Assembly: GCF_016026235.1 (NCBI RefSeq)
Contig: NZ_CP065613.1
Origin: Escherichia coli
GTDB lineage: Bacteria; Pseudomonadota; Gammaproteobacteria; Enterobacterales; Enterobacteriaceae
DNA: 64,000 bases
Strand: one strand, 5' to 3'
Shown: piece after piece, positions 15,655-31,631 of the stretch
Layout: each line of letters opens with the position of its first letter
How positions within the stretch are numbered: the stretch's first letter is position 1
Translations under genes and position numbers: made by a program
The notes under the pieces: generated by a model
What the model was told of the DNA's origin: nothing
Database searches by the model: none
Seen by the model: only the letters and a program-made list of their open reading frames with translations

Positions 15655-15765
15655 GCAGAAAAACGACTTTTTATAATATAAACATTTAACATGATAATAT
15701 TAAAAACAGACTTTATTATCGTAATAAAAATCGCCCAAACATTCCTGTTCGGGCGATCAAATTAA

Positions 15766-26373: not shown

Positions 26374-27141
26374 TTATAGCGCCAGAACCGCCGTATTCAG
26401 CGTTTCTATCGGTGCCGGGCGTGAAAGAAACCAGCCTTGTGCGGCGAATGCGGGCGAGTTCTGAACATCACGCCACTCTTCCGGCGTTTCTACGCCCTCG
26501 ACAATCACCCCGCGACAATAGCGATTCATTAGATGTAAAAGCTGAGAAAAGAGTGTGCGGCCTTCCGGCGACTGACGCAGCATCACAAACAGTTCTCGCG
26601 CGATTTTGATGTAGTCATAACGCACTTCACTTAGTGCAGAGAAATTTGCCATCCCGGTACCAAAATCATCCAGCCACAGCGGGCCAAATTCACACATCGA
26701 GGCAAAGGTTGAATCTTTCGGCAGACGGATATGCCCCACCAGTTCGAAACGCAGCCAGGGAAGACGCTCAATCTGGCGCAGGATTTTTGGTTGCTGACGC
26801 AGGGCGATGAGCGTAGGGCCATCAATATTGACCGATGCCAGCAGGTCGTGCTCTACAAAGAAGTCGGCTTTTTGCGCCAGCAAATCAATCTGCTCTTTCA
26901 CAACCTCCATCCGATGGCTGACGGTGATTTCAGTAAAATAGCGATCCGGCGGCAGGCGTTGCGAAGGGTTCAAGGGATGCGTGACCACCGTTAATAGCTC
27001 CACGGCCATTAACCGTCCGCATGTTTGATAGATCGGCTGCCAGGTGTAAGCACGCTCACACTGCAACCAAAAACGCCGTTCCTGCAAGCTCTCGATGCTT
27101 GCTTCAGGGTTGCTTATTCGCTGGATAACCTGCCTTATCAT
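26374..27141 (-). CDS. pdeH: EAL-domain c-di-GMP phosphodiesterase PdeH (YhjH)
   Basis: 255-aa ORF from ATG 27141 (MIRQVIQRIS...); recalled identity. Confidence 0.85.
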   Translation of the reverse strand: MIRQVIQRISNPEASIESLQERRFWLQCERAYTWQPIYQTCGRLMAVELLTVVTHPLNPSQRLPPDRYFTEITVSHRMEVVKEQIDLLAQKADFFVEHDLLASVNIDGPTLIALRQQPKILRQIERLPWLRFELVGHIRLPKDSTFASMCEFGPLWLDDFGTGMANFSALSEVRYDYIKIARELFVMLRQSPEGRTLFSQLLHLMNRYCRGVIVEGVETPEEWRDVQNSPAFAAQGWFLSRPAPIETLNTAVLAL

Positions 27142-27287
27142 CAAAGATGTCCTGTGTTTAAAAGTGATGCTGCCCGGACTCGACAAAGATTATCGGCGCG
27201 CAAGGGCAGAACTTTACCGCCTGGCCGAGGTAAATTTCCTCACTCCACAACGGAATCTTTCAGGAATACGTTCTGGCTCAAAAAAAT

Positions 27288-27306
27288 AATGGAACACTGT
27301 TTTAAT
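27288..27306 (+). promoter_or_regulatory. candidate KdgR operator upstream of kdgK
   Basis: AATGGAACACTGTTTTAAT seen about 67 bp upstream of the kdgK ATG; resembles the recalled KdgR box AATGAAACAnTGTTTCATT. Confidence 0.4.
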
Positions 27307-27372
27307 ATGGTTGACCAGCAAACCACCACAGCGCAAACTAACGCTAATTTTTTACAGATCAGGTTCACGACT

Positions 27373-28302
27373 ATGTCCAAAAAGATTGCCGTGATTGGCG
27401 AATGCATGATTGAGCTTTCCGAGAAAGGCGCGGACGTTAAGCGCGGTTTCGGCGGCGATACCCTGAACACTTCCGTCTATATCGCCCGTCAGGTCGATCC
27501 TGCGGCATTAACCGTTCATTACGTAACGGCGCTGGGAACGGACAGTTTTAGCCAGCAGATGCTGGACGCCTGGCACAGCGAGAACGTTGATACTTCCCTG
27601 ACCCAACGGATGGAAAACCGTCTTCCGGGCCTTTACTACATTGAAACCGACAGCACCGGCGAACGTACATTCTACTACTGGCGTAACGAAGCCGCTGCCA
27701 AATTCTGGCTGGAGAGCGAGCAGTCTGCGGCGATTTGTGCAGAGCTGGCGAATTTCGATTATCTCTACCTGAGCGGGATTAGCCTGGCGATCTTAAGCCC
27801 GACCAGCCGCGAGAAACTGCTTTCCCTGCTGCGCGAATGCCGCGCCAACGGCGGAAAAGTGATTTTCGACAATAACTATCGTCCGCGCCTGTGGGCCAGC
27901 AAAGAAGAGACACAGCAGGTGTACCAGCAAATGCTGGAATGCACGGATATCGCCTTCCTGACGCTGGACGACGAAGACGCGCTGTGGGGTCAACAGCCGG
28001 TGGAAGACGTCATTGCGCGCACCCATAACGCGGGCGTGAAAGAAGTGGTGGTGAAACGCGGGGCAGATTCTTGCCTGGTGTCCATTGCTGGCGAAGGGTT
28101 AGTGGATGTTCCGGCGGTGAAACTGCCGAAAGAAAAAGTGATCGATACCACCGCAGCTGGCGACTCTTTCAGTGCCGGTTATCTGGCGGTACGTTTGACG
28201 GGCGGCAGTGCGGAAAACGCAGCGAAACGCGGGCACCTGACCGCAAGTACCGTTATTCAGTATCGCGGCGCGATTATCCCGCGTGAGGCGATGCCGGAAT
28301 AA
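27373..28302 (+). CDS. kdgK: 2-dehydro-3-deoxygluconokinase
   Basis: 309-aa ORF from ATG 27373 (MSKKIAVIGECM...); PfkB-family kinase; the track's upstream extension rejected. Confidence 0.9.
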   Translation: MSKKIAVIGECMIELSEKGADVKRGFGGDTLNTSVYIARQVDPAALTVHYVTALGTDSFSQQMLDAWHSENVDTSLTQRMENRLPGLYYIETDSTGERTFYYWRNEAAAKFWLESEQSAAICAELANFDYLYLSGISLAILSPTSREKLLSLLRECRANGGKVIFDNNYRPRLWASKEETQQVYQQMLECTDIAFLTLDDEDALWGQQPVEDVIARTHNAGVKEVVVKRGADSCLVSIAGEGLVDVPAVKLPKEKVIDTTAAGDSFSAGYLAVRLTGGSAENAAKRGHLTASTVIQYRGAIIPREAMPE

Positions 28303-28396: not shown

Positions 28397-29602
28397 ATGC
28401 CATCTTGCAAAAGGATTTTTGCAGCTTCACTTCTTCTGATCGGCCTGGGCTACGGGCTGCATATTTTATTTACCCCCTCACAACCGCTTCGCTTTGATCA
28501 GCAAGTCTATATCTGGCAACGCGTCTGGACGGCAGAACATCACGAGGCACTCAAACGAAGCCGCCCGCTTTTCTCTACGCTGCGCATACTTGGGATGCAA
28601 TTTCATCCGCAAGAAGGCATCCGACACTTTACGGTTAATACTTCACTTATTAAGCAAGATGGTCGCCCGGTCTGGCTGGTCGCGCGACTCGATGGCCAGC
28701 TTACACGGTTTAATAACCAGCAAATTATCCAGCATATTCAACAGACCCTACGTGAGTGGCAAAAGGCAGGTATTACGCTGGCAGGGGTGGAAATTGATTA
28801 TGACGCGCCAACAGCAAAATTGCCGGAATATCTGACACTACTTAGTGCGTTACATCAGGCACTTCCTACAAATATAAAACTTAGCGTTACCGCCCTGCCC
28901 ACCTGGCTTGATTCACCACATCTCGCCCGATTATTGCGCATTGCGGACACTTCGGTTTTACAGGTACATAACGTGCTTTCGCCCGAAAAAGGCCTGTTAG
29001 ATGCCAGTCTGGCGCAGAGTTGGGTAAAGCAATATGCCAGGCAAACCACGCACCCTTTTTTCATCGCATTGCCCGCTTATGGCTCCGCACTCACCAGTGA
29101 TAATCGTGTCGAAAGCGAATCCCCGCTATACGTTGCTGATGAAATGCGAGAACTAAGTGTATCGCCACAAACGATTGCCGAGTTTATTCAATATATAGAA
29201 CAGCAACCACCGCGTGGATTACAGGGGTTGGTATGGTTTCGGCTACCGTTAGCAGGCGATCGCCGCGCCTGGTCACTGACAACACTGGAAGCCGTGATTC
29301 GACATCAACCGCTGACTCCGCGCTGGTCGTTAATAATTACTCAACATACAGACAAGCAACTTTTTGATCTGGCCTTTAAAAACAGCGGCGTAATTGATGC
29401 GCCGTTGCCAAAACAAATAATTCTGCCCAATGCAGATTGTCTATTCGCTGATGGAGCCGGTCACTATCAGGTGCAACCTGGACCATCCAGCCTGAATTTT
29501 GTGAGAGGAAGCGCCAGGCAACTGCGCGCCGGAGAAAGCAGTCCGCTGGGATGGGCGCGCTGTAATCAAAAAATTCAAGGAGAGTTTAATGTTATCCCCT
29601 AG
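28397..29602 (+). CDS. hypothetical exported or membrane-anchored protein (accessory; not at this position in K-12)
   Basis: 401-aa ORF with N-terminal hydrophobic segment (IFAASLLLIGLGYGLHILF); weak SD; 14-nt overlap with next ORF; family not recognised. Confidence 0.6.
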   Translation: MPSCKRIFAASLLLIGLGYGLHILFTPSQPLRFDQQVYIWQRVWTAEHHEALKRSRPLFSTLRILGMQFHPQEGIRHFTVNTSLIKQDGRPVWLVARLDGQLTRFNNQQIIQHIQQTLREWQKAGITLAGVEIDYDAPTAKLPEYLTLLSALHQALPTNIKLSVTALPTWLDSPHLARLLRIADTSVLQVHNVLSPEKGLLDASLAQSWVKQYARQTTHPFFIALPAYGSALTSDNRVESESPLYVADEMRELSVSPQTIAEFIQYIEQQPPRGLQGLVWFRLPLAGDRRAWSLTTLEAVIRHQPLTPRWSLIITQHTDKQLFDLAFKNSGVIDAPLPKQIILPNADCLFADGAGHYQVQPGPSSLNFVRGSARQLRAGESSPLGWARCNQKIQGEFNVIP

Positions 29603-31631
29603 AATATCGCGGCTTTCCGTTATTGTATTTCTCTCACTAATTAGCGCCAACGTTAATGCCTGTGGACCATTTATTCCTAACCATCTGTTAACTGACCGCA
29701 ATAGCGCACTGCTGGAAATGCCAAATGGCAGTTTTGTCTTTGAAGTACAACAGTTGGCTAAACGCGATCCTGGTTTACCAATATGGCATGAAAATACGCC
29801 CGCGGAGGCAACGCAGGAAAATACAGATGATGATGCTGAGCCTCCTGTGCAAAATAGGTCACTGGAAATCGCGCAAAAATTGCAGAAACCATTATCTGAT
29901 GCGCAGTGGCTGTATTATTCAGGAGCTAAGGATTTTCATCAGGGAAAATACGATAGCCCTTACTTTCAGCAATTATTAGCCTTGCCGAAAACAGAGCAAG
30001 GGGAATGGCGTCTTGCTGCGCTATATAGTCTGGCAAGAGGGGGATTTGATGCCACTGACGACAATCTCGATCTGATAATCAATAAAGGCGGCTTTAATCA
30101 GGAAATTGCTGAGCAGGCCATACAACGTTATCAGCAAATCATTGAAGAGGTCCGTAATGGCGTAGCCGATCCTGAGCAGCTCTCTCTCGCCAGTCTCGGT
30201 CAGATTGGGCATTATTATCTGAAAAAAGGTGATGTCGCGGCGGCAGTAAAAATTTATGCCCGGCAAGCGGCCCAGGGTTCGCCCTCCGGGAAAGCTTCGT
30301 TACGAATGATTTCGTTATATCTAACCAGGGAGAAAAATTTACCACTGCTGGAATCGGTTATTGATGATCCACTGGTTCAGCAACTGGTAATCGCAGAGCT
30401 CTTTATTCGTCAAGACTGGGGATATGACAGCGAAGCCTGTACTAAAGACCTTGTAGATTATACCTGTCCAACGCATCGCGACCGTTTAATTAAGTTGCTA
30501 AGTCAACACAGAGTGAAAGGGTTTAGTTATAGCGATCGACTTGCAGCGCTGGCGTATCGGGCAGGAAATTATTCGTTAGCACAAATGCTATTGCAGGATG
30601 CGCCAGAAAGTGGCTTAAGCGAATGGTTAAAAGCAAAACTGGCATTACGAGCCGGAGATATTCCACTGGCAACGCGTCACTATGCTCGCGCAGCCCCGCA
30701 GTTCCCTGCCGATGAAGTCTGGGGAAGTATGGACCCAGAAAGCCCTTATTACCATGCCGATAAAGTTACCGTCCCCTCTTGCCGTATTGCCAGTGAGCAA
30801 GCGATTTTGGCATTAAAACGCGATGATTATCTTCAGGCGACCGCATTGTTTTACCAGGCCAAAGATCTCTATTGGGCCGATTTAGCCTGGGTGGCAGAAA
30901 ACGTTTTGACCTTGTCGGAGTTACAGGCGTTTGTTGAAAAAAACGTACCGGTACCTCAGCACCCTTTAAAACCTGTAGATTTAAACAATAGCAGTTACGG
31001 TTATTATATTTCGCCAGATATCATTCCAACGGATGTTAAATTACGAGCACTATTAGGGAGACGATTAATTCGTCATGGCCAGTACCAGCAGGCCATTAAT
31101 TGGTTTGATATTCCCAATTATCGCCAGGCCGCACAAAAACTGGCTGATTTAATGGCGATAGCAAAAAATAAAAATATCCCTGATAAGCAACGCGCCCAGG
31201 CGCAATATGAAGCTGCGCGGCTTTTGCGTTTCAGTGGTATCGAATTGGTGGCTTATGAAATGTATCCCGATTATGCCATTTCCAGTGGGCAGTATTCAGA
31301 ACCTTTTGAATACAGCAATAACGATTACTGGATAAGTCGTAAAGAAAAACAACGTATTCGCTACGCAATCCCCACCGCTGATGATCATTTTTTGCATTAT
31401 CGCTGGCAGGCTGCGGAATGGGCCGGACAATCTGCCGATTTACTTCACCCTAAAACCCAGGCATGGGCTGCCGTGTTATGCCATGCTGCAAGTTGGGTCA
31501 GATATCCTGATCCAGAAACCGGTGCATTAATTTATCAACGCTACGTAAAAAACGGTAAAGCTTTTGACTGGGCTGCGCATTTTGGTCGTGATTGTCCAGA
31601 ACCAGTGTTTAAGAAGGATCTGAAGAAATAA
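29589..31631 (+). CDS. hypothetical secreted protein or lipoprotein with helical repeat-like regions (accessory)
   Basis: 680-aa ORF, AGGAG SD 8 nt upstream, signal peptide ending ...LISANVNA-C; family not recognised. Confidence 0.6.
   Translation: MLSPRISRLSVIVFLSLISANVNACGPFIPNHLLTDRNSALLEMPNGSFVFEVQQLAKRDPGLPIWHENTPAEATQENTDDDAEPPVQNRSLEIAQKLQKPLSDAQWLYYSGAKDFHQGKYDSPYFQQLLALPKTEQGEWRLAALYSLARGGFDATDDNLDLIINKGGFNQEIAEQAIQRYQQIIEEVRNGVADPEQLSLASLGQIGHYYLKKGDVAAAVKIYARQAAQGSPSGKASLRMISLYLTREKNLPLLESVIDDPLVQQLVIAELFIRQDWGYDSEACTKDLVDYTCPTHRDRLIKLLSQHRVKGFSYSDRLAALAYRAGNYSLAQMLLQDAPESGLSEWLKAKLALRAGDIPLATRHYARAAPQFPADEVWGSMDPESPYYHADKVTVPSCRIASEQAILALKRDDYLQATALFYQAKDLYWADLAWVAENVLTLSELQAFVEKNVPVPQHPLKPVDLNNSSYGYYISPDIIPTDVKLRALLGRRLIRHGQYQQAINWFDIPNYRQAAQKLADLMAIAKNKNIPDKQRAQAQYEAARLLRFSGIELVAYEMYPDYAISSGQYSEPFEYSNNDYWISRKEKQRIRYAIPTADDHFLHYRWQAAEWAGQSADLLHPKTQAWAAVLCHAASWVRYPDPETGALIYQRYVKNGKAFDWAAHFGRDCPEPVFKKDLKK

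Follow-up and report, generated by a model that had tools for sequence, protein, structure and literature searches.

A conserved palindrome in the divergent pdeH-kdgK spacer of Escherichia coli is the probable operator for KdgR control of kdgK

The sequence AATGGAACACTGTTTTAAT, at positions 27288-27306 of a 64-kb segment of an Escherichia coli chromosome (the whole analysed stretch, hereafter the window), is in all probability the operator by which the IclR-family repressor KdgR keeps kdgK off, a reading to which we assign a probability of about 0.9. The motif score and the conservation of the site, together with the published derepression of kdgK and the published gel shift with PlaR, support this reading, which is already known for the kdgK box. 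A first-pass annotation of the window had proposed that the site is a KdgR-like operator of kdgK that may also influence the divergent gene pdeH. The first part of that interpretation stands, while the additional control of pdeH does not.

Results

The coordinates of the box were confirmed exactly. The box is a 19-bp imperfect palindrome of the form AATGGAAC-ACT-GTTTTAAT, to which no strand is assigned. On its left lies pdeH (yhjH; 26374-27141, minus strand), which encodes an EAL-domain c-di-GMP phosphodiesterase, and on its right lies kdgK (27373-28302, plus strand), the regulated gene, which encodes a 2-dehydro-3-deoxygluconokinase of 309 amino acids (PF00294; RefSeq annotation of matching genomes). 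Since pdeH starts at 27141 and kdgK at 27373, the box is situated within a divergent spacer of 231 bp. The distance from the box to the kdgK ATG (27373) is 66 bp, for which the first-pass annotation had given about 67 bp. The RefSeq gene order around the box in matching genomes is yhjG, pdeH, kdgK and a DUF3142 gene.

No second match to AATGGAACACTGTTTTAAT was found in the 64-kb window, even when three mismatches were allowed, and none occurred in 100 dinucleotide-preserving shuffles. The box of K-12 MG1655 is identical to that of the window, and the two positions at which the spacers of the two strains differ are both outside the box. The 2.1 kb around the box matches 5,422 of 5,426 complete E. 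coli genomes, with 99.9% identity to FDAARGOS_943 and about 98% to most other E. coli, and of the 5,403 complete genomes with a match to the 61-mer centred on the box, 4,161 carry it unchanged. Downstream (3') of kdgK, the window carries the DUF3142 gene (401 amino acids; 28397-29602) and an overlapping open reading frame of 680 amino acids (29589-31631). Neither is found in K-12 MG1655, where kdgK is followed immediately by yhjJ; the DUF3142 gene is present in the top E. coli matches listed.

When compared with AATRAAAYRNYRTTTYATT, which we take to be the KdgR box consensus, the box shows two mismatches over 18 specified positions, and three mismatches to the stricter consensus used in the first-pass annotation. 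We then scored it with a symmetrised matrix from which kdgK was left out, built from the K-12 boxes of kdgT, kduI (two sites), tabA and ygjV, genes that have all been placed in the KdgR/PlaR regulon in published work. The matrix comprises only five training sites, chosen by likeness to the consensus, and is therefore not independent of that consensus. With 20.1 bits out of a maximum of 25.4, the kdgK box falls among the training sites (18.6-24.6 bits). The tail probability of such a score is about 2e-8 per position, equivalent to about 0.001 matches per 64 kb or about 0.1 per genome, and none of 200 shuffled sequences reached it. A second matrix, to which the weaker candidates of eda and yeeO were added, gave the same outcome, with 20.8 bits for the kdgK box. 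The likeness to the KdgR box claimed by the first-pass annotation is thus borne out by the matrix score. The second-best match in the window, AGAAAAACGACTTTTTATA at 15657-15675, scored 13.9 bits, 6 bits below the box and comparable to shuffled sequence (mean maximum 13.4 bits), and it was not taken as a site.

The conservation of the box was assessed by a KdgK scan of species-representative genomes, which yielded 80 loci from about 20 genera of the Enterobacteriaceae with 86-99% protein identity; the sample is one of Enterobacteriaceae. The best matrix match within 500 bp upstream of kdgK was the orthologous box in 80 of 80 species, always 64-74 bp from the kdgK ATG. Alignment of the 81 upstream regions shows no variation in GGAAC (27291-27295) or GTTTTAA (27299-27305). 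The three bases at the centre are A or G, any base, and T or C, respectively, which corresponds to the degenerate R-N-Y positions of the consensus. Mean conservation over these 81 sequences is 0.97 for the box without its centre, compared with 0.46 for positions 27218-27276 and 0.65 for the whole spacer. Invariant half-sites with a free centre are the signature expected of a site that is read by a symmetric dimer. At three kdgK loci from Vibrio, Photobacterium and Aeromonas, taken from a collection of plasmids and chromids, no strong match was found with the enterobacterial matrix.

A quite different account of these data would be that the box is a chance likeness, or an A/T-rich upstream promoter element to which no repressor binds. 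The region is indeed A/T-rich where an UP element would sit, and the left half-site departs from the consensus, with GGAAC instead of GAAAC. However, the expected frequency of the score and the shuffled sequences argue against chance, the combination of invariant half-sites and a freely varying centre fits a dimer-binding palindrome rather than an A/T tract, and derepression of kdgK in a kdgR mutant has been published (PMC6958661). We regard this account as extremely improbable.

The departure from the consensus is itself conserved. All 81 sequences carry the non-consensus G at 27292 (box position 5, within TGGAAC), where TGAAAC or TAAAAC stands in the other K-12 boxes, and the asymmetry of the half-sites is equally invariant. 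Possible reasons for the invariant G are the tuning of affinity or discrimination between KdgR and PlaR. Among the loci collected, three records labelled Chryseobacterium sp. 18061 (L081), Pseudomonas tritici (P0017) and Vagococcus sp. WN89Y (P0086) were seen to carry an Enterobacteriaceae-type kdgK with 87-88% identity, in the case of L081 along with the pdeH/kdgK spacer. Contamination or mislabelling of the assemblies is the probable explanation.

Pairs of sigma-70-like hexamers were enumerated on both strands of the spacer at a threshold of at least 8 of 12 hexamer matches. Only one pair was found, TTGACC-17-CAAACT, and it is directed towards kdgK. The predicted -35 hexamer TTGACC lies at 27311-27316 on the plus strand, with a conservation of 0.994 over the 81 sequences, and the predicted -10 hexamer CAAACT lies at 27334-27339 on the same strand after a spacer of 17 bp. 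The -10 hexamer is weak, with three of six matches; in most other genera it reads CACACT, and five of its six positions are nearly invariant. A standard promoter scan of the region gave no sigma-70 promoter at its threshold. Based on the enumerated pair, transcription of kdgK is predicted to start near 27346. The 3' end of the box is 4 bp upstream of the predicted -35 hexamer, and thus the box covers approximately -58 to -40 of the predicted kdgK promoter, with its centre near -49, a more distal position than that of most repressor sites. The box is immediately preceded by the A-tract CTCAAAAAAAT (27277-27287, plus strand), which has a mean conservation of 0.955 over the 81 sequences. Judged from its sequence and place, the tract may extend the operator or form a part of the kdgK promoter that resembles an UP element; an A-rich 5' flank is also present at other K-12 KdgR-type boxes. 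Two other motifs, AATAAT (27285-27290) and TAATAT (27303-27308), were considered as -10 elements that would place the box over the core promoter, and they were rejected because neither has a usable -35 element. In Klebsiella, the -35 position corresponding to AATAAT reads CATAAT.

Enterobacterial operators of the KdgR regulon were reportedly described by Nasser et al. in 1994 and by Rodionov et al. in 2000 and 2004, and the comparative genomics of the latter two studies is said to have provided the first prediction of KdgR boxes in E. coli. As for the regulation of kdgK itself, Shimada et al. (2019) found kdgK mRNA to be raised in the kdgR deletion mutant JW1816 and referred to kdgK as a known KdgR target (PMC6958661), so that the raised kdgK expression in a kdgR mutant, a result on which the first-pass proposal could be checked, is on record. 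Additionally, Sastry et al. reported overexpression of kdgK and kdgT, and also of kduI, kduD, asr and hyi, in a strain from which 39 genes, kdgR among them, had been deleted (PMC6892915). Together with the matrix score, the invariant half-sites and the position of the box beside the sole sigma-70-like pair, these published data uphold the assignment of a KdgR-type operator to kdgK (PMC6958661, PMC6892915). The literature search yielded no KdgR-DNA binding assay on the E. coli kdgK site, the published gel shift having been performed with PlaR, and the names kdgK and pdeH were both absent from the PPTP-seq supplements, in which KdgR was knocked down.

The gel shift raises the question of which protein acts at the box, since PlaR (YiaJ), an IclR-family paralogue, rather than KdgR could be the physiologically relevant one. 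kdgK is among the genomic SELEX targets of PlaR, PlaR shifts a probe named pdeH/kdgK in vitro, and the published PlaR box, ATnTGAAACnnnGTTCAnTT, resembles the KdgR box when judged by eye (PMC6958661). The primers of this probe map to 27135-27154 and 27338-27360. The probe (27135-27360) therefore spans the whole spacer, and the gel shift does not pinpoint the box itself. In opposition to a primary role for PlaR, the gel shifts required 1-5 micromolar protein, and in the same study it was the kdgR mutant in which kdgK mRNA rose, kdgK not being listed as increased in the plaR mutant (PMC6958661). We therefore consider it highly improbable that PlaR takes the place of KdgR at this site, although the two proteins are not mutually exclusive as regulators of kdgK. 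Both pdeH/kdgK primers are printed in plus orientation in Table S1 of that paper (PMC6958661), and one of them is thus presumably listed as its complement.

The 64-kb window does not include kdgR, the gene for the repressor. Since 5,424 of 5,426 complete E. coli genomes carry kdgR, this strain very probably does as well. In 54 of the 5,424 genomes, the best kdgR match covers less than 80% of the gene, which suggests that about 1% of E. coli strains carry disrupted kdgR alleles.

The divergent gene pdeH has a promoter of its own, separate from the box. This is a sigma-28 (FliA) class 3 promoter of the form TAAAGTTC-N11-GCCGATAAT, located at 27189-27216 on the minus strand, where the full sequence is TAAAGTTCTGCCCTTGCGCGCCGATAAT. 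Apart from one spacer base, this is the sequence of the yhjH FliA site identified by ChIP-seq by Fitzgerald et al. (2014), at which expression was 511 in the wild type and 2 in the fliA mutant (PMC4183435). The sigma-28 elements have a conservation of 0.92-0.94 and the spacer of this promoter 0.44 over the 81 sequences.

It could nonetheless be argued that the box is a shared, bidirectional operator, at which bound KdgR or PlaR also modulates pdeH, so that hexuronate or 2-keto-3-deoxygluconate (KDG) would feed into c-di-GMP turnover and motility. The box is in the spacer common to both genes, and Shimada et al. name their binding region pdeH/kdgK (PMC6958661). Furthermore, 67 of 74 species have a gap of 70-74 bp from the sigma-28 -35 element to the box, which makes for a fairly stable length. 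However, the box begins 71 bp beyond the -35 element of the pdeH promoter in the window, which puts the centre of the box about 115 bp upstream of the expected pdeH start, and the intervening sequence is only 46% conserved. As the gap varies by 1-4 bp in most species and amounts to 41, 68 or 80 bp in the remainder, its length is roughly kept while there is no helical phasing. The matrix scan showed no second KdgR-like site near the pdeH promoter, and the enumeration of hexamer pairs in the spacer showed no sigma-70-like promoter towards pdeH; the expression of pdeH is, by the values cited above, almost entirely FliA-dependent (PMC4183435).

The box is also present in genomes that lack pdeH. 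In Klebsiella species, in Intestinirhabdus and in one Enterobacter strain, pdeH is absent and the upstream neighbour of kdgK is yhjG or yhjE. In these genomes the A-tract, the box and TTGACC are retained as a block, at an unchanged distance from kdgK, and within the block only the three central box positions and two variable bases before TTGACC differ. Records without pdeH beside kdgK were L055, L063, L064, L075, L076 and L094 (Klebsiella), L031 (Intestinirhabdus), L080 and L012; in the last of these, Escherichia sp. MOD1-EC7003, pdeH is deleted and the spacer with its sigma-28 motif remains. In Citrobacter koseri (L018), only residues 1-155 of PdeH were matched.

The literature points in the same direction. 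Our search found no link of KdgR to the expression of pdeH, yhjH or ecpC, and the overexpressed genes named for the 39-gene deletion strain that lacks kdgR do not include pdeH (PMC6892915). An operator shared by the two genes would lie near both promoters and would have its conservation tied to both genes, which is not the arrangement found here. Hence we conclude that the box belongs to kdgK and that control of pdeH through the KdgR box, as suggested by the first-pass annotation, is not supported, given the separate sigma-28 promoter, the 71-bp poorly conserved gap and the retention of the box without pdeH; we judge a bidirectional operator to be quite unlikely. The coupling of hexuronate catabolism to c-di-GMP turnover that the annotation had derived from it is likewise unsupported, no report of an effect of KdgR on pdeH having been found.

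An independent observation on pdeH concerns the protein encoded in this strain. PdeH of the window differs from K-12 PdeH at three residues, one of which is the substitution E136G (codon 136 at 26734-26736 on the minus strand). It arises from a single base change at 26735 and also distinguishes the strain from FDAARGOS_943, the closest complete genome. None of 5,404 complete E. coli genomes contains the 61-mer around this position in identical form, and all 72 PdeH orthologues from other species have Glu at position 136, within the motif RFELVEH. We take E136 to be the second glutamate of the ExxE motif of the EAL domain, needed for full phosphodiesterase activity. Since the substitution affects an invariant residue of this kind, the strain may have impaired PdeH, and E136G may be a loss-of-function mutation in the main c-di-GMP phosphodiesterase associated with motility. 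This private allele may bear more on the motility and biofilm phenotype of the strain than the kdgK operator does.

Discussion

The analysis leads to the conclusion that the palindrome upstream of kdgK is the operator of that gene and that KdgR is the protein which acts there. In the mechanism we propose, KdgR would bind the imperfect palindrome AATGGAAC-N3-GTTTTAAT and, with the adjoining conserved A-tract, would block the contacts of RNA polymerase at the -35 and upstream region, presumably by steric occlusion. During catabolism of hexuronates or pectin fragments, KDG would accumulate, bind KdgR and free it from the DNA. The freed promoter would then allow transcription of kdgK, the product of which would phosphorylate KDG for the aldolase step of the Entner-Doudoroff pathway. 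The role of KDG as the KdgR inducer in E. coli is an assumption on our part, made by analogy with KdgR of Dickeya and from classical E. coli genetics. PlaR (YiaJ), in turn, may occupy the same box in vitro.

The operators of the enterobacterial KdgR regulon include those of E. coli kdgT, kduI-kduD, eda P2, tabA/yjgK and ygjV and those of the pel, ogl, kdu and kdg genes of Dickeya dadantii. The kdgK box is of the same 19-bp palindrome type (AATRAAAYRNYRTTTYATT) with an A-rich flank, it is located in the promoter region of a KDG-pathway gene that shows derepression on loss of kdgR, and this E. coli site is itself part of the published regulon. It differs from the other operators in two respects. 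Its left half-site has G rather than A at position 5 (TGGAAC) in all 81 sequences, and it does not overlie the core promoter or the transcription start but immediately precedes the -35 hexamer.

Operators of other IclR-family repressors are likewise palindromes beside or over the -35 element, bound by a dimeric or tetrameric helix-turn-helix repressor that is released by a pathway metabolite. The sequence specificity and the inducer differ between these systems and the kdgK box, and the likeness is therefore one of mechanism only. Closer to the kdgK box is the PlaR box, ATnTGAAACnnnGTTCAnTT, a near-identical palindrome recognised by an IclR-family paralogue that shifts the pdeH/kdgK spacer. 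In contrast to the kdgK box, however, the main in vivo target of PlaR is the yiaK operon, and the reported in vivo effect on kdgK is that of KdgR (PMC6958661).

The importance of the site goes little past the confirmation of an annotation, as the small regulon to which it belongs is well known and the operator is of a textbook type. The only wider-reaching idea, that metabolism feeds into c-di-GMP signalling by way of the shared spacer, is unsupported. In one version of it, occupancy of the box by KdgR or PlaR, or a burst of kdgK transcription from the vacated box, would modestly tune the sigma-28 promoter of pdeH, for example by way of supercoiling. The divergent starts are about 160 bp apart, and such coupling is therefore conceivable, but we consider it very unlikely to operate here. 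If it did, cells growing on hexuronates from plants would change their c-di-GMP levels and their motility. For the KdgR operator of kdgK itself, the clean phylogenetic footprint, with its invariant half-sites, free centre and conserved adjacent -35 hexamer, could serve as a positive control for motif scans.
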